Positions 8,284 to 62,190 of a stretch of 64,000 nt of DNA are shown one piece after another. A program made the position numbers and the translations under genes. This stretch comes from Escherichia phage vB_EcoM-CHD94UKE2. Every line of letters begins with the position of its first letter. The stretch's first letter is position 1. The stretch lies in the sequence record MZ234031.1; one strand, 5' to 3'. The notes beneath the pieces are model-generated. The model did not search any database and was not told the DNA's origin. It was given only the letters and a program-made list of their open reading frames with translations.

Positions 8284-8499
8284 AAAAACTCAAAATTCTT
8301 TTTCTGACAGGACATTTTAATGAAAACCGAATTGGTTTATACTGAAAAGTTAAATGGCGGTAAGGTTTGGAAACTTTTTATTAAAGGACATTCTACGGAC
8401 CCTCATATGACCACTTGCGTAGGAACCTATTCTCGTCCTACTAAAAAGATGATTCGACAGTATAAACGATTGCATCGAATGTTTTACAATACTTAAAAA
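8213..8499 (+). repeat. imperfect direct repeats: 3' end of pin duplicated around a 135-bp unique insert
   Basis: 8213-8233 vs 8288-8308 (20/21); 8238-8287 vs 8451-8499 (about 45/50, all transitions). Confidence 0.8.
8320..8496 (+). CDS. small chimeric ORF (58 aa) sharing C-terminal 15 aa with Pin-like protein
   Basis: C-terminal MIRQYKRLHRMFYNT vs Pin KIRQYKRLHQMFYNT; weak SD. Confidence 0.35.
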   Translation: MKTELVYTEKLNGGKVWKLFIKGHSTDPHMTTCVGTYSRPTKKMIRQYKRLHRMFYNT

Positions 8500-8500
8500 T

Positions 8501-8539
8501 AATAAATACCCTTATCTATTTAAGGTAAGGGTATTTATT
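8501..8539 (+). promoter_or_regulatory. 14-bp perfect inverted repeat abutting the gene 49 start codon (possible RBS-sequestering hairpin)
   Basis: AATAAATACCCTTA 8501-8514 pairs with TAAGGGTATTTATT 8526-8539; ATG at 8540. Confidence 0.5.
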
Positions 8540-9013
8540 ATGTTATTGACTGGCAAATTATACAAAGAAGAAAAACAAAAATTTTATGATGCACAAAATG
8601 GTAAATGCTTAATTTGCCAACGAGAACTAAATCCTGACGTTCAAGCTAATCATCTTGATCATGACCATGAATTAAATGGACCAAAAGCAGGAAAGGTACG
8701 TGGATTGCTTTGTAATCTCTGCAATGCTGCAGAAGGTCAAATGAAGCACAAATTTAATCGTTCTGGCTTAAAGGGACAAGGTGTTGATTATCTTGAATGG
8801 TTAGAAAATTTACTTACTTATTTAAAATCCGATTACACCCAAAATAATATTCATCCTAACTTTGTTGGAGATAAATCAAAGGAATTTTCTCGTTTAGGAA
8901 AAGAGGAAATGATGGCCGAGATGCTTCAAAGAGGATTTGAATATAATGAATCTGACACCAAAACACAATTAATAGCTTCATTTAAGAAGCAGCTTAGAAA
9001 GAGTTTAAAATGA
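8540..9013 (+). CDS. 49: endonuclease VII (Holliday-junction resolvase)
   Basis: 157 aa, MLLTGKLYKEEKQ..., Cys cluster; matches T4 gp49 by recall. Confidence 0.9.
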   Translation: MLLTGKLYKEEKQKFYDAQNGKCLICQRELNPDVQANHLDHDHELNGPKAGKVRGLLCNLCNAAEGQMKHKFNRSGLKGQGVDYLEWLENLLTYLKSDYTQNNIHPNFVGDKSKEFSRLGKEEMMAEMLQRGFEYNESDTKTQLIASFKKQLRKSLK

Positions 9014-10827
9014 CAATTGAAAAAGAAATTGAAGGATTGATTCATAAAACTAATAAAGACCTTTTAAACGAGAATGCTAATAAAGATTCTCGTGTTTTTC
9101 CAACTCAACGGGACCTTATGGCTGGTATTGTGTCTAAACACATTGCCAAAAATATGGTCCCGTCTTTTATTATGAAAGCGCATGAAAGCGGAATTATTCA
9201 TTTCCATGATATTGATTATTCCCCTGCTCTTCCATTTACTAATTGTTGTTTAGTAGATTTAAAAGGAATGCTTGAAAACGGATTTAAGCTTGGTAATGCA
9301 CAGATTGAAACTCCTAAATCAATTGGCGTTGCTACTGCAATTATGGCGCAAATTACTGCACAGGTTGCTTCTCACCAATACGGCGGAACGACTTTTGCTA
9401 ATGTAGATAAAGTACTTTCTCCTTATGTTAAACGCACCTATGCAAAACATATTGAGGATGCAGAAAAATGGCAAATCGCTGATGCGTTAAATTATGCTCA
9501 ATCTAAAACAGAAAAAGATGTATACGATGCATTCCAAGCTTATGAATATGAAGTAAATACTCTCTTTAGTTCAAACGGACAGACTCCTTTTGTAACAATT
9601 ACATTTGGTACGGGAACTGACTGGACTGAACGAATGATTCAGAAAGCAATTCTGAAAAATCGTATTAAAGGTCTCGGTCGTGATGGGATAACTCCTATTT
9701 TCCCTAAGCTTGTTATGTTCGTTGAAGAAGGCGTTAATCTTTATAAAGACGATCCGAACTATGATATTAAGCAGCTTGCTTTAGAGTGTGCAAGCAAAAG
9801 GATGTATCCTGATATTATTTCAGCTAAGAACAATAAAGCTATCACCGGCTCATCTATTCCTGTTTCTCCAATGGGTTGCCGCAGTTTCTTGAGCGCGTGG
9901 AAAGATTCAACCGGTAATGAAATTCTTGATGGACGTAATAATCTTGGTGTTGTAACACTGAATCTTCCTCGTATTGCGTTGGATTCTTATATTGGAACAC
10001 AGTTCAATGAACAGAAATTTACTGAATTGTTCAATGAGCGAATGGATTTATGTTTTGAAGCTTTGATGTGTAGAATTAGTTCCTTAAAAGGAGTTAAAGC
10101 GACTGTTGCTCCTATTCTTTACCAAGAAGGTGCATTCGGGGTTCGTCTTAAACCTGATGACGACATAATTGAGTTATTTAAAAACGGTAGAAGTTCAGTG
10201 TCTTTAGGATACATTGGTATTCATGAATTGAATATTCTTGTCGGTCGTGATATTGGACAAGAAATTTTAACTAAAATGAATGCTCGTCTTAAACAGTGGG
10301 CTGAAAGAACTGGGTTTGCTTTTAGTTTGTATTCGACTCCTGCTGAAAACCTTTGTTATCGCTTCTGTAAACTTGATACAGAAAAATATGGAAGTGTAAA
10401 AGATGTTACCGATAAAGGATGGTACACTAACAGTTTCCATGTTTCAGTAGAAGAAAATATTACTCCGTTTGAAAAGATTTCTCGCGAAGCCCCATATCAT
10501 TTCATTGCGACAGGTGGTCACATTTCTTATGTTGAACTTCCTGATATGAAAAATAACCTAAAAGGTCTTGAGGCTGTCTGGGATTATGCTGCACAACATT
10601 TAGATTATTTTGGTGTTAATATGCCAGTAGATAAGTGTTTTACATGCGGAAGTACCCATGAAATGACTCCTACTGAAAACGGATTTGTTTGTTCTATTTG
10701 TGGAGAAACTGATCCTAAAAAGATGAACACAATAAGAAGAACATGCGGCTATCTTGGAACTCCTAGCGTTGTTCCATGGAATTTAGGTAAAATGAAAGAA
10801 ATGGTAAAACGAGTAAAACATGCATAG
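9010..10827 (+). CDS. nrdD: anaerobic ribonucleoside-triphosphate reductase NrdD (uninterrupted)
   Basis: 605 aa continuous ORF, C-terminal glycyl-radical motif RRTCGYLG; no intron. Confidence 0.95.
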   Translation: MTIEKEIEGLIHKTNKDLLNENANKDSRVFPTQRDLMAGIVSKHIAKNMVPSFIMKAHESGIIHFHDIDYSPALPFTNCCLVDLKGMLENGFKLGNAQIETPKSIGVATAIMAQITAQVASHQYGGTTFANVDKVLSPYVKRTYAKHIEDAEKWQIADALNYAQSKTEKDVYDAFQAYEYEVNTLFSSNGQTPFVTITFGTGTDWTERMIQKAILKNRIKGLGRDGITPIFPKLVMFVEEGVNLYKDDPNYDIKQLALECASKRMYPDIISAKNNKAITGSSIPVSPMGCRSFLSAWKDSTGNEILDGRNNLGVVTLNLPRIALDSYIGTQFNEQKFTELFNERMDLCFEALMCRISSLKGVKATVAPILYQEGAFGVRLKPDDDIIELFKNGRSSVSLGYIGIHELNILVGRDIGQEILTKMNARLKQWAERTGFAFSLYSTPAENLCYRFCKLDTEKYGSVKDVTDKGWYTNSFHVSVEENITPFEKISREAPYHFIATGGHISYVELPDMKNNLKGLEAVWDYAAQHLDYFGVNMPVDKCFTCGSTHEMTPTENGFVCSICGETDPKKMNTIRRTCGYLGTPSVVPWNLGKMKEMVKRVKHA

Positions 10828-11650
10828 GTATTATATAATTTATAAAATAACAAATATAATTAATTCAAAGGAATATATCGGTGCGCATAGCACCGATAAC
10901 ATAAATGACGGTTATATGGGGTCAGGAACATTGATTCGTGCCGCTTTATTAAAATATGGTAGAAAAAATTTTAATAAAGAAATTTTACATGTTTTTGATA
11001 ATGAAAAACAAATGTATGATAAAGAAGCTGAACTTGTAACCGAAGAGTATTGTCTAAAAGAAAATACATATAATATTAAACCTGGTGGAAAAGGTGGAAC
11101 TGCTTATGAACAGACACTTGAACATCGCCACAAAAATAGTTTAGCAAATAAAGGTAAAAAGAAAACAGCAGAAACTAAAATAGCTATTTCACGTGCTTTA
11201 AAGAAATATAAACGTACACCAGAGCATCAAGCAAATTTAAATAAAGCTGTAAGCATAGCTATGAAGCGAAAAGATGTTAGAAGTAAATTAGTTGGAGAGC
11301 GGTCTGAGAAAGATAAATTATCTATATCAAACGGTGTTAAAAAATATTACAATTCTTTGAGCGAAGAAGAACGCGAACTTCATCGCAAGCGAATTATTGA
11401 AGGTAAAAAGAATTCTCCCATGTCATTGGAATCTAGACAAAAGCTTTCAAAAGCTTTAAAAGGACTTCAAGTTGGTTCAAAAAATCCAATGTATGGAAAA
11501 ATTTCTCCAACTAGTAAAACCGTTTCAGTTGACGGTATTAAATATGATTCAATTAAAAAGTGCTCAAATGCCATAAAAGTTTCTAGACATCTTATACTGA
11601 AACGCTGTAATTCTACTGATGAAGCTTGGAAAAATTGGATATTATTATGA
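10820..11650 (+). CDS. free-standing GIY-YIG homing endonuclease (SegH-like by position)
   Basis: 276 aa; YIIYKITN...KEYIGAHS GIY-YIG core, C-terminal NUMOD-like basic repeats; overlaps nrdD stop and nrdG start. Confidence 0.8.
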   Translation: MHRYYIIYKITNIINSKEYIGAHSTDNINDGYMGSGTLIRAALLKYGRKNFNKEILHVFDNEKQMYDKEAELVTEEYCLKENTYNIKPGGKGGTAYEQTLEHRHKNSLANKGKKKTAETKIAISRALKKYKRTPEHQANLNKAVSIAMKRKDVRSKLVGERSEKDKLSISNGVKKYYNSLSEEERELHRKRIIEGKKNSPMSLESRQKLSKALKGLQVGSKNPMYGKISPTSKTVSVDGIKYDSIKKCSNAIKVSRHLILKRCNSTDEAWKNWILL

Positions 11651-12173
11651 ACTATGACAGAATATACCCGTGCTGCTTTGTGAATGGTCCTGGATGCAGG
11701 ACCGTTCTTTTCGTGAATATACCCGTGCTGCTTTGTGAATGGTCCTGGATGCAGGACCGTTCTTTTCGTTACAGGTTGTTTGCATAAATGCGAAGGGTGT
11801 TATAATAAATCAACATGGAATGCTAGAAATGGTATTCCATTCACTGGTGAAACACTAGAACAATTAATTGAATGTTTGAATAATGATTATATAGAAGGAT
11901 TAACTATAACCGGAGGTGACCCTCTTTATCCTGATAACAGAGACGTGATTCATTGCATCGTTCAAACAGTAAAAAAATCTTTATCCCAATAAAAGCATTT
12001 GGTTGTGGACAGGATATAAGTTTGAAGATATTAAACAACTAGAAATGCTTAAATATGTTGATGTTATTATTGATGGAAAGTATGAGAAAAATCTTCCGAC
12101 TAAAAAGCTGTGGCGAGGATCAGATAATCAGCGACTTTGGTCAAATACCTATGGGGTGTGGAAACATGATTAA
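11647..12173 (+). pseudogene. nrdG: nrdG (anaerobic RNR activase) disrupted by 55-bp tandem duplication and +1 frameshift
   Basis: MNYDRIYPC... start at 11647; radical-SAM CLHKCEGC in second frame (ORF 11735-11992); conserved SIWLWTGYK...WRGSDNQ C-terminus in third frame to stop 12171-12173. Confidence 0.8.
11660..11769 (+). repeat. perfect 55-bp tandem duplication inside nrdG
   Basis: 11660-11714 identical to 11715-11769. Confidence 0.95.
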
Positions 12174-12293: not shown

Positions 12294-12509
12294 ATGTATA
12301 AATTTCGTAAAGGTTTAGCTGATTTTCTTACAACTGTAACATTCTTTCTGTTTATGGCAGTTGGAGCTATTTTCCTTATTCCTTTTATTGCTATATTTTT
12401 CGTGATTAGTTTAATTTCTCCAGAAAAGGGCTTATCTTCTAGTGAGTTTAATGAGCGTCTGGATAAAATTACTAACAAGCTGAATGCTGTTCTTGATAAA
12501 AAGGCTTAA
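12294..12509 (+). CDS. hypothetical membrane protein (71 aa)
   Basis: one long hydrophobic segment, AAGGG SD. Confidence 0.45.
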   Translation: MYKFRKGLADFLTTVTFFLFMAVGAIFLIPFIAIFFVISLISPEKGLSSSEFNERLDKITNKLNAVLDKKA

Positions 12510-12511
12510 TT

Positions 12512-12823
12512 ATGATTAGTTTTGAGCGGTATGTAGTAGAGAGTTGGAATGGTTTTGATATGTTCGGTAATGACTATTATTTCTATGAATGTAGTCTGAA
12601 CCCAAGCTTCTGGGCTGGACGTGAACAAGACCTCGAAGAAATCAACGCTCGTGCCGATTTGTTAGGTGAACTGCCTACTACTTATTTCACCTTTGATGAA
12701 TCCGGCTTCGTTATCCAGGTTTATTTTCCTGAAGAAAACTCTGGTGAGGATTCTGTTAATCCTCCTTATTGGGCTTACCAAGGAATTATTTCTCGTGGAA
12801 CAAAACTCGAACTTAAAGAATAA
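12512..12823 (+). CDS. hypothetical protein (103 aa)
   Basis: AAGG SD, acidic protein. Confidence 0.5.
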   Translation: MISFERYVVESWNGFDMFGNDYYFYECSLNPSFWAGREQDLEEINARADLLGELPTTYFTFDESGFVIQVYFPEENSGEDSVNPPYWAYQGIISRGTKLELKE

Positions 12824-35537: not shown

Positions 35538-36053
35538 ATGCCACATTTCAACGAATGTAGTCAACTGATCGAAGGCGCTGATAAAGCTCAAAATGAATAT
35601 TGGGATATTCTCGGTGATGAAAAAGACCCGCTGCAGGTAATGCTTGATATGCAGAAATCTTTACAGATTCGTTTAGCAAATGACCGCGAATACTGTTATC
35701 ATCCAGATAAATTAGAAACTGCCGGTGATGTTGTTTCTTGGATGCGTGAACAAAAAGACTGTATTGATGATGAATTCCGCGAACTTCTGACTTCTCTTGG
35801 TGAAATGTCACGTGGTGAAAAAGATGCATCGGCAGTTTGGAAAAAATGGAAAGCACGTTATATTGAAGCGCAAGAAAAACGCATTGATGAAATGTCCCCA
35901 GAAGATCAGCTCGAAATTAAATTTGAGCTTGTGGATATATTTCATTTCGTATTAAATATGTTTGCTGGCCTTGGAATGAATGCGGAAGAAATCTTTAAAC
36001 TTTATTATTTGAAAAATAAACATAATTTTGAACGTCAAGATAATGGGTATTAA
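35538..36053 (+). CDS. 56: dCTPase/dCTP pyrophosphatase gp56
   Basis: 171 aa, matches T4 gp56 by recall. Confidence 0.85.
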   Translation: MPHFNECSQLIEGADKAQNEYWDILGDEKDPLQVMLDMQKSLQIRLANDREYCYHPDKLETAGDVVSWMREQKDCIDDEFRELLTSLGEMSRGEKDASAVWKKWKARYIEAQEKRIDEMSPEDQLEIKFELVDIFHFVLNMFAGLGMNAEEIFKLYYLKNKHNFERQDNGY

Positions 36054-36717
36054 ACAAAAATTTTATAGAACATATATCGTAAAAGTTAGGACGCCGAAAG
36101 GCGTCTTTTGGTACGCTGGGAAACATGAATCATTTATTGTAAATCCATATGATGATAAATATCCGGGGTCAGGCAAAATACTATGGAACATATATCGTAA
36201 GTATGGTTTTAATTATAAAATACGTTGGTCAAAATGCCATGGTTCTAGAGAAAAATCATATGAAGTTGAACGCGAGCTAATATCTGCATTAAAACGTAAA
36301 CACCCAGATACTTGCATTAATATTTCTCCTGGTGGTCAGGGTGGAGAAGGAAGAAAATGGACTGAGCAACAACGATTAGAACATAAACTTAGATTAAACA
36401 ATCCTGAAACAAAAACTCGGATGAAGAATTCACAACGTATAGCCCAAAATAGAGCAGAACGAAAAGCTCGGCAATCTGAAGTAATGAAAAAGTTTTATTC
36501 GAATGGCGGAAATAAAAAGATTTCAGAAGGAACTTCAAGGGCGCAAAGAAAAGCGCCGCATTGGCATGAACCGCTTAAAAGCGAAATACATGAGTTATGG
36601 GTTTCTTTAGGTAAACCAGCAACAGGCCCGGTTGTAAAGGCGCTTAAAGGAAAATATGATGTAACAAGTTCAGCTCTTAAGAATTTAATTTACTTATTCA
36701 GAAAAGAAGATGTATAA
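36043..36717 (+). CDS. degenerate GIY-YIG endonuclease-like protein (SegF-like by position and size)
   Basis: 224 aa from ATG 36043; YPGSGKILWNIYRKYG resembles YMGSGTLIRAALLKYG of the 10820 GIY-YIG protein. Confidence 0.55.
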   Translation: MGIKQKFYRTYIVKVRTPKGVFWYAGKHESFIVNPYDDKYPGSGKILWNIYRKYGFNYKIRWSKCHGSREKSYEVERELISALKRKHPDTCINISPGGQGGEGRKWTEQQRLEHKLRLNNPETKTRMKNSQRIAQNRAERKARQSEVMKKFYSNGGNKKISEGTSRAQRKAPHWHEPLKSEIHELWVSLGKPATGPVVKALKGKYDVTSSALKNLIYLFRKEDV

Positions 36718-61407: not shown

Positions 61408-62190
61408 TTATACTCTTGGACCATATATTGCTCCAACATTTTGCCATGTTGGAGCGGACCCTATGACAGCATAACCAGCAGCGCCGCCATTATATTCAGA
61501 TCCTTGACCGCGAATATTGCATCTACCTCCCGCGGAACCTACTTCACCACCGTTTCCACCATTATAGATACCATTCACGGATCCTGAGCCAGGTGCAGAA
61601 ATAGTACCGCCAGTCGCGCCTGATTGCATATCAATAGATCCTCCTGGCGCACCAAAAGGACGACCGCCACCACCACCAAAGGTCAATCTCATTTGTGAAA
61701 AAGGAGAATAATATCCGCCGCCGCCACCGCCGCCACCGCCTGCAATAGCTCCGCCATTATTAATTCTTAGTCTCCCACCAATATCGTTTTGAATACAATG
61801 ACCTCCAGCTGAGCCAGGACTATTGCTACCGCCATTACCTCCACGACCATACATCGTTACGCCATGTATATTTAACTGAACATATTCATTTGGTGTATCT
61901 CCGTACATGAAGAATAAAGGAACATCTTTAGAATAAGAAACGATATCACCAACAATATTGAATACAATAGGTGCACCGCCAGCTTCAAAGCATCTATCAC
62001 GGAACCACTGACCATTAAAATTGTGGTTTGCTCCTACAGTATGAATAATTTCTCGTGAGCGACCTGCAAATTGACTCATCCAGCAAGGAACACCCAATCT
62101 TAATTGACCAGCCGCTTGACTCATCCAGCGCTGTCCTGTTTCATTTGCGGCTGAACTTCCAATCCAACCAGGAACACCAACTACTGCCAT
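61408..62190 (-). CDS. 38: tail-fibre adhesin gp38 (T2-type, glycine-rich motifs)
   Basis: 260 aa with poly-Gly blocks ([26 protein letters not shown]) separated by variable segments. Confidence 0.75.

Follow-up and report, generated by a model that had tools for sequence, protein, structure and literature searches.

Results

The window analyzed here is a stretch of 64,000 nucleotides from the genome of Escherichia phage vB_EcoM-CHD94UKE2, a Tequatrovirus and sibling of Escherichia phages vB_EcoM-G3F7 and G3F10. Three genes follow one another on its plus strand with overlapping ends: nrdD (9010 to 10827), encoding the class III (anaerobic) ribonucleotide reductase in 605 codons without an intron; segH (10820 to 11650), a free-standing GIY-YIG homing endonuclease gene of 276 codons; and nrdG (11647 to 12173), encoding the radical-SAM activase of NrdD and disrupted twice, with Fer4_12 and Radical_SAM matched on its fragments. 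The segH ATG at 10820 and the nrdD TAG at 10825 to 10827 fall within an 8-nt overlap, ATGCATAG, and the nrdG ATG at 11647 shares 4 nt, ATGA, with the segH TGA at 11648 to 11650. A preliminary description of this DNA had reported both overlaps, which are plain in the sequence, and had contrasted a continuous nrdD with the intron-bearing gene of T4. That contrast is borne out as well. The ORF listing gives a single reading frame, the Pfam NRDD profile is covered from end to end (1 to 562 of 562, E 1.3e-171), and the Gly_radical domain is also matched. In T4, where nrdD carries the I-TevII intron (PMC2988022 Table 1), the annotation splits the gene in two, with I-TevII lying between the parts. 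The site homologous to the insertion of this group I intron lies at 9545 to 9548, and the intron is absent: BLAST against T4 aligned positions 8449 to 9545 and 9548 to 10802 to the two T4 exons, with the ~1,035-bp T4 intron exactly missing, and an Rfam search found no intron.

The 276-codon ORF is segH, a selfish gene previously described in T6 and its relatives, in an ordinary and already known arrangement. The comparison with SegH proposed in the preliminary description found 273 of 276 residues identical between the T6 and window proteins. At the DNA level, the locus is 97.1 to 97.5% identical over 2.26 kb to the T6, RB3, and LZ2 records (AY262137 to AY262139), which name this gene segH and give it identical boundaries, as seen in AY262137.2 and also in MH550421, and a 90%-identical protein of Salmonella phage KM16 already bears the name SegH. 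The PHROG 314 family "homing endonuclease" matches the ORF with an E value of 4e-59, which, combined with 99% identity to T6 SegH, indicates that the frame has not arisen by chance.

Naming of this gene in public records is uneven: it appears as "segD" in the RB3-group records, and several records give only "hypothetical protein" or "homing endonuclease." We reject the segD label, as T4 segD sits between genes 23 and 24 (PMC2988022); it is also contradicted by the finding that T4 covers only the flanks of the locus, 31% of the query. The correct annotation name is segH, a point of little importance beyond annotation.

Distribution of segH is patchy. The gene occurs in 68 to 69 of about 840 to 960 related phage records, with the nrdD-nrdG junction empty in most others. 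Neither the presence of segH nor the absence of the intron is unusual, most relatives having an empty junction and an intronless nrdD, which is the common state. The earlier suggestion that a seg-type endonuclease here replaces mobC thus holds relative to T4 and fails relative to most relatives, in which there is nothing at the junction to replace. Mutual exclusion of segH and the nrdD intron was considered and rejected, as the two co-occur in some records; the intron is also present in about 14 of the best 60 segH-containing records.

On both sides of segH, alignment to the empty-site phage RB18 reveals sharply bounded, diverged patches of host-gene sequence on the plus strand. The final 83 nt of nrdD (10745 to 10827), which begin directly 3' of the glycyl-radical motif RRTCGYLG and encode a C terminus ending in TPSVVPWNLGKMKEMVKRVKHA before the stop codon, are 60% identical to RB18, while the remainder of nrdD is 95 to 98% identical. 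This tail is present in 79 records; in all those among the matches listed, segH or a mobC variant accompanies it. The head of nrdG (11652 to 11702, gene nt 6 to 56), which includes a D10C change (PCCFV), is 72.5% identical to RB18, and the next 144 nt are 100% identical. The same head patch was found 3' of the endonuclease gene of GADU22 and of mobC in SHFML-11. In the records examined, such patches adjoin endonuclease genes only. The patchy distribution of segH, together with these sharply bounded, co-inherited flanks, is a signature of recent mobility. The closest distinct homologue, P0003 (47 to 49% identity), comes from an unrelated phage of 175 kb, where its gene immediately follows a different nrdD.

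As modeled, SegH has the two-domain architecture of I-TevI: its N-terminal GIY-YIG nuclease is joined through a basic linker with NUMOD3 to a helix-turn-helix at the C terminus. Residues 1 to 95 (10820 to 11104, plus strand, as are the next two features) are assigned by AlphaFold2, Foldseek, and profiles to a GIY-YIG catalytic domain of the SegE-like subfamily; the AlphaFold2 model of this N-terminal domain has a pLDDT of 94 to 98, and its best Foldseek match is the I-TevI catalytic domain 1MK0 (probability 1.00, TM 0.63). Residues 200 to 228 (11417 to 11503) match Pfam NUMOD3 at 28.1 bits (cut-off, 20.4), a motif embedded in a basic linker of predicted helices (residues ~96 to 225) with additional degenerate repeats. 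Residues 226 to 273 (11495 to 11638) are a predicted I-TevI-type helix-turn-helix DNA-binding domain, matching the I-TevI DNA-binding domain 1I3J (Foldseek probability 1.00) and, under its cut-off of 27, PF20987 (19.4 bits). The only Foldseek matches with a probability of at least 0.99 were 1MK0 and 1LN0, both I-TevI catalytic domains, and 1I3J. Both the GIY-YIG character of the protein and its NUMOD-like basic repeats, as first read from the letters, are in this way upheld.

Assignment of the GIY-YIG fold required an N-terminal profile and the fold search, as single-sequence searches were too weak. SegH alone scored 18.6 bits against Pfam SegE_GIY-YIG, under the cut-off of 25, phmmer of SegH against the PDB returned noise only, and a full-length profile reached I-TevI at only E 0.17, whereas the N-terminal profile found 1MK0/1LN0 in the PDB at E 0.0034. 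Across SegH homologues, PF19835 was matched by 33 of 36 and PF01541 by 25 of 36; the PF19835 subfamily also takes in Seg enzymes of T4 that are active, SegE among them. The Pfam search found no HNH domain in the window protein, though it did in the MobC proteins of T4 and SHFML-11.

In the N-terminal profile alignment, Y8, Y19, and Y84-N85 of SegH align to Y6, Y17, and Y89-N90 of I-TevI, the last pair exactly, such that the two GIY-YIG motifs, Y8 (within YIIYKITN) and Y19-I-G21, correspond to Y6 and Y17-V-G19. The catalytic Glu of I-TevI, E75, lies between two SegH glutamates, the family-invariant E69 being placed one position before it and E71 one after by the profile alignment, and both within 1 to 4 positions of it. 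The I-TevI helix with R27, the conserved catalytic Arg, falls in an insertion without a SegH counterpart, and R40 of SegH varies within the family; the missing aligned Arg is a trait of the entire SegE-like subfamily rather than a peculiarity of the present copy. All 23 family-invariant residues are kept, including Y8, Y19, G21, E69, E71, and N85.

The damage to nrdG that had been pointed out earlier is real in this record and consists of two lesions on the plus strand. The first, located by repeat search, is a perfect 55-bp tandem duplication (11660 to 11714 repeated as 11715 to 11769; nrdG nt 14 to 68) that frameshifts the gene. Its copies are 100% identical, CTTTTCGT meets GAATATAC at the junction with zero microhomology, and it is the sole tandem repeat in the 64 kb. 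The duplicated unit begins 10 nt beyond the end of segH, within the endonuclease-linked patch of nrdG. The duplication was absent from IMG/VR, from all compared loci, from the phage records among the matches listed, and from the public gene catalogue, which likewise lacks the two ORFs that it creates. The second lesion, identified by comparison with relatives, is a +1 frameshift in an A7 homopolymer (11971 to 11977). The A7 run is common to the G3F7, G3F10, and PM123 records, and the run is A6 in relatives whose nrdG is intact; T6, RB18, PM108, and PM136 all have A6.

With the 55 bp removed, the window has 0 mismatches to G3F7 over 50 kb and 1 mismatch to G3F10 in 49,945 bases. At that one position (61694, in gp38), the window has the base of unrelated wild phages. 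The window is thus unlikely to be an edited copy of G3F10, since the change restores the wild-phage base. A literature search found no paper on the G3F and PM phage series.

The 5' coding region of nrdG also holds a conserved hairpin of 10 to 11 bp followed by a U-tract (11682 to 11707, plus strand), with a second copy at 11737 to 11762 resulting from the duplication. Its energy is -19 to -21 kcal/mol, with a z score of about -3 in three alleles, and pairing is kept in 94.7% of cells across 19 distinct sequences.

Discussion

Taken as a whole, it is very likely that the ORF is segH, a free-standing GIY-YIG homing endonuclease gene, and that the nrdG lesions are independent of SegH, the 55-bp repeat being most likely an assembly artifact. 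For the gene itself, the host DNA inherited along with segH has been delimited to 83 nt of nrdD and about 51 nt of nrdG, which narrows the search for the SegH recognition site. At least three endonuclease genes, unrelated to one another, have settled at the nrdD-nrdG junction, and each of them reuses start or tail codons of the host genes.

Expression and homing can be proposed from the family and from what is published on SegH. SegH may be made at a low level via re-initiation at the nrdD stop, because a good ribosome-binding site is lacking and the ORFs overlap by 8 nt. No T4 late-promoter motif (TATAAATA) was found in the segH locus, and sigma-70-like matches there were fewer than in shuffled sequence. 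The C-terminal domain of SegH would bind nrdD/nrdG junction DNA of a co-infecting phage lacking segH, and the GIY-YIG domain would then cut nearby, leaving a double-strand break. Repair by recombination off the segH-containing genome would copy segH plus its diverged flanks, a case of intronless homing in which the flanks are co-converted. The nrdD 3' end, which is conserved, is the probable target, since the P0003 homologue follows nrdD in an unrelated phage.

The two nrdG lesions are most likely independent of segH, with nothing linking either to SegH cleavage. The A6-to-A7 frameshift, which the sibling records share, either arose by mutation in the lineage or reflects an error in sequencing the homopolymer. 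For the duplication, the most likely reading is that a k = 55 overlap was retained when a de Bruijn-graph contig was circularized. The default largest k-mer of SPAdes is 55, and it is this match in length, along with the lack of junction microhomology, that argues for an artifact, albeit circumstantially. In contigs of SPAdes type, the two ends repeat each other over the length of the largest k (PMC10914622). The repeat is probably not to be read as biology.

The best of the alternatives, though an unlikely one, is a real duplication that arose independently of SegH, by replication slippage or template switching at the nrdG hairpin, and was neutrally fixed via plaque purification. Fixation could have been neutral because nrdG would already have been inactive through the A7 frameshift, which the lineage carries, and the unit does hold an 11-bp hairpin of the stability given above. 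The wild-type base at the gp38 SNP also fits a natural third sibling. Such an event, however, would have left neither junction microhomology nor a trace in any other record searched, would by coincidence have a length of exactly k = 55, and would have had scant time to occur, rare as it is, in siblings that are otherwise nearly identical.

The preliminary description had held that the nrdG damage should be interpreted together with the neighboring endonuclease, and here it was not sustained: the homopolymer +1 is common to the siblings, and the 55-bp repeat, found in no public record searched, is best explained as an artifact. That the damage is collateral to SegH, the enzyme having cut the phage's own DNA close to the start of nrdG and faulty repair having produced the duplication, is in our judgment very unlikely. 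The position of the unit, 10 nt past the segH stop and within the endonuclease-linked patch, would suit this reading. In the 2005 work by Sandegren, Nord, and Sjoberg, SegH is reported also to cut DNA that contains segH. T4-type phages, however, mend breaks by homologous recombination, not end joining. The copies are also fully identical, their length is exactly a default k of assemblers, the duplication is missing from siblings that differ by 1 SNP or by a 28-bp indel and from the other segH-containing records among the matches listed, and the other nrdG lesion is a plain homopolymer +1. The narrower proposal, a genuine duplication from repair of an own-genome SegH cut at or near the conserved hairpin, is less probable still; if true, the repeat would record a local duplication driven by an endonuclease, as a small relative of the SegB amplification described in T6 in 2026. 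There, SegB drives tandem amplification of a 718-bp unit adjoining its own gene, with microhomology at the amplicon junction and a selective benefit (PMC13096335); the nrdG repeat has neither.

We give scant credence to the view that SegH has lost its homing activity and survives as a remnant, inactive or else domesticated, for instance to regulate nrdG by binding DNA: the canonical GIY-YIG Arg cannot be aligned, the Pfam GIY-YIG score is sub-threshold, and I-TevI doubles as a transcriptional autorepressor (according to a work cited in PMC2790892), but the ORF is intact and nearly identical to T6 SegH, every family-invariant residue is present, and the distribution and flanks of the gene speak for recent mobility.

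Comparison with known systems places segH among the free-standing endonuclease genes of T4-like phages. SegH of T6, RB3, and LZ2 is the same gene, likewise set between nrdD and nrdG and overlapping them by the same 8 and 4 nt, and the window copy departs from the T6 protein by three conservative substitutions, A42S, A117E, and E118K. Unlike the window, these reference phages have an nrdG without the frameshift and without the 55-bp duplication. I-TevI, from the T4 td intron, is built like SegH, with a GIY-YIG nuclease at the N terminus connected by a flexible linker to a minor-groove/helix-turn-helix DNA-binding domain at the C terminus. It is intron encoded, whereas SegH is free-standing, and identity is about 25%. 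The Arg27 helix of I-TevI is replaced in SegH by the loop TDNINDGYMGSG, the SegH linker carries NUMOD3-type helices, and no search matched a zinc-finger domain in SegH. T4 MobC, whose activity had not been determined (PMC2988022 Table 1), occupies the same junction and is of an unrelated nuclease family (Pfam HNH); its ORF, like segH, opens in recycled host codons, starting with MNYDRIY of nrdG. SegF, SegG, SegE, and SegB of T4 and T6 have other loci and targets and the same lifestyle as SegH, that of a promoter-less cassette set among conserved genes, overlapping the ORF upstream, cleaving a neighboring gene, and spreading with co-conversion of its flanks (PMC2988022).

Results

The 276-codon ORF at the nrdD-nrdG junction (10820-11650, + strand) is segH in the already known T6-like arrangement. 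Its ATG sits within ATGCATAG, the TAG of which is the nrdD stop, and its TGA lies within ATGA, where the ATG (11647) is the nrdG start; all features read in the preliminary description, an ORF after nrdD with stop/start overlaps at both ends, are thus present. The T6 protein annotated segH is identical to the window protein at 273 of 276 residues, and a 2.26-kb stretch has 97.1-97.5% identity to AY262137.2 (T6), AY262138.2 (RB3), and AY262139.2 (LZ2), in which nrdD, segH, and nrdG are annotated with the same overlaps. A protein of Salmonella phage KM16 with 90% identity also bears the name SegH. The label "segD," given in RB3-group records KM606994-KM606999 and NC_025419 to a gene equal to segH in position and sequence, looks like an annotation error.

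The architecture of SegH is that of a GIY-YIG endonuclease, as had been proposed. The domain was found with homologues, an N-terminal profile, and the fold, while the single-protein Pfam score was subthreshold: NUMOD3 is the sole Pfam model above threshold for window SegH alone, which scores under both the SegE_GIY-YIG and I-TevI_DNA-bd cutoffs. Among 36 SegH homologues, SegE_GIY-YIG is matched by 33 and GIY-YIG by 25. The N-terminal profile matches the I-TevI catalytic domain structures 1MK0/1LN0 (E 0.0034), aligning Y8 with I-TevI Y6, Y19-G21 with Y17-G19, and Y84-N85 with Y89-N90. An AlphaFold2 model (mean pLDDT 80.7; N-terminal domain, 94-98) reaches a probability of at least 0.99 against only four chains of solved structures, those of the I-TevI catalytic (1MK0, 1LN0) and DNA-binding (1I3J) domains. 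Unlike I-TevI, SegH has no counterpart of the helix carrying Arg27, which is a trait of the whole SegE-like subfamily and no defect of the window copy.

Upstream, nrdD (9010-10827, + strand) is one ORF of 605 codons, its product spanned end to end by Pfam NRDD (E 1.3e-171) and also matched by the glycyl-radical domain. The T4 site holds the I-TevII intron, according to Table 1 of PMC2988022 and the T4 annotation. The two T4 nrdD exons, ~1,035 bp apart in T4, match window positions 8449-9545 and 9548-10802, and an Rfam scan of the window found no intron. nrdD is therefore continuous, unlike that of T4, as first described. The nrdD intron accompanies segH in about 14 of the best 60 segH-positive records (span of ~3300 versus 2261), so segH and the intron are independent, and intronless nrdD is the norm.

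segH is patchily distributed, occurring in 68-69 of about 840-960 related phage records. In most segH-less records listed, nrdD directly adjoins nrdG, the nrdD TGA overlapping the nrdG ATG (as in RB18), and the two genes adjoin in 20 of the 22 IMG/VR loci that allowed the glycyl-radical motif of NrdD to be located. The HNH gene mobC occupies the junction in T4 and a few other phages. In GADU22 the site holds a third putative endonuclease gene, of 279 codons and unrelated to the other two (1325-2164 of locus L008), whose product gives weak NUMOD1/I-HmuI-like matches only.

The flanks of segH are inherited with it. Read straight from sequence against the empty-site phage RB18, the last 83 nt of nrdD (10745-10827) have 60% identity, the remainder 95-98%, and divergence sets in directly after the glycyl-radical motif RRTCGYLG. 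In nrdG, nt 6-56 (11652-11702) have 72.5% identity and nt 57-200 have 100%. The diverged nrdD tail (ending in KMKEMVKRVKHA and the stop) is present in 79 records; among the rows listed, its neighbours are segH or a mobC variant only, never an empty site.

Two sibling phages are nearly identical to the window. Escherichia phage vB_EcoM-G3F7 (MZ234035.1, Tequatrovirus) shares bases and coordinates through 11714 and, with 55 bases taken out of the window, agrees with it throughout the first 50 kb (0 mismatches); G3F10 (MZ234038.1) has 1 mismatch in 49,945 bases. At the lone SNP relative to G3F10, position 61694, the window has the base of unrelated wild phages. The window is thus a third natural sibling. 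The gp38 adhesin gene has 28 extra bases (61605-61632) relative to the G3F7 record, where gp38 is annotated as two pieces; these and the SNP, at which the window also differs from PM123, look like host-range variation among sibling isolates.

nrdG is disrupted twice. An A7 run (11971-11977, + strand; A6 in T6, RB18, PM108, and PM136) is common to the G3F7, G3F10, and PM123 records, where nrdG is annotated as two pieces, and reflects either mutation in this lineage or a miscalled homopolymer. The other lesion is a perfect 55-bp tandem duplication (11660-11714 plus 11715-11769, + strand; nrdG nt 14-68), the sole tandem repeat within the 64-kb window.

The nrdG coding region also contains a 10- to 11-bp hairpin followed by UUCUUUUCGU (11682-11707, nrdG nt 36-61; duplicate copy, 11737-11762), covering codons NGPGCR(T/V)VLF. 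Its nucleotides, stem wobble positions included, are kept in nrdG alleles whose proteins are as little as 68% identical, with one covarying pair (C:G to U:A) and free variation at the loop wobble position; a more distant clade (NGKGIR) is without it. The hairpin could act as a terminator or attenuator within the gene, or as a processing site.

Elsewhere, a 58-codon ORF (DUF7279, 8320-8496) lies between pin and gene 49, with none in T6. The final 14 codons of this ORF (IRQYKRLHRMFYNT) repeat the Pin C terminus (IRQYKRLHQMFYNT), which suggests that the 3' end of pin was duplicated by a small insertion. A stretch of ~324 bp separating gene 55.8 from nrdH (12495-12818) has no T4 counterpart and holds a 103-codon ORF (12512-12823) with no Pfam family, unannotated on this strand in G3F7; the downstream nrdH-like ORF extends 5' beyond T4 nrdH. 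A further annotated homing endonuclease gene lies at ~36043-36717 (G3F7 record, 35988-36662), flanked by gene 56 (dCTPase) and soc.

Discussion

The 55-bp duplication is probably an assembly artefact. For SPAdes, 55 is a default largest k. With de Bruijn-graph assemblers, the overlap left at contig ends has the length of the largest k (PMC10914622), and a circular contig rotated with this overlap untrimmed would give exactly such a repeat. A real duplication independent of SegH is unlikely; the repeat was not found in G3F7, G3F10, the listed segH-positive records, IMG/VR, or the gene catalogue. Duplication by SegH is very improbable: endonuclease-driven tandem amplification exists, as with SegB in T6, but there the amplified unit shows microhomology at its junction and brings a selective benefit (PMC13096335), whereas no microhomology was found at this junction. 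With the A7 run common to sibling records and the repeat probably artefactual, the suggested link between nrdG damage and the endonuclease is unsupported.

By analogy with the Seg family (PMC2988022), and in line with published work on SegH, SegH would be translated at a low level, coupled to nrdD termination. Its C-terminal domain would bind near the nrdD/nrdG junction of a coinfecting segH-less phage, a double-strand break would follow nearby, and recombinational repair would copy segH plus its diverged flanks into that genome.

The closest distinct SegH homologue, at 47-49% identity, lies in a 175-kb phage, directly behind a different nrdD that bears an ATP cone; the homologue has a ribosome-binding site of its own, and nrdG is 2 kb away. 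The lineage is thus tied to the nrdD 3' end, its likely target region. We compared window 10790-10830 with RB18 (L007), SHFML-11 (L009), and loci L028 and L033. segH opens with nine bases, ATGCATAGG, that are identical to the M-H-R codons in the ancestral tail of nrdD (...ATC ATG CAT AGG GTT AAG CAC CAA TGA). SHFML-11 retains this whole tail behind the replacement tail, and about a dozen records have replacement tail, full ancestral tail, and mobC together. We infer that segH starts in a remnant of the former nrdD tail, without a start codon of its own ancestry, and that the cassette furnishes NrdD with its replacement tail. NrdD of segH-positive phages ends in KEMVKRVKHA, a sequence closest to the KEMVNRTKH ending seen in more distantly related T4-like phages. 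Unlike segH, the mobC and GADU22 ORFs start with nrdG's own first codons, ~12 of them in GADU22.
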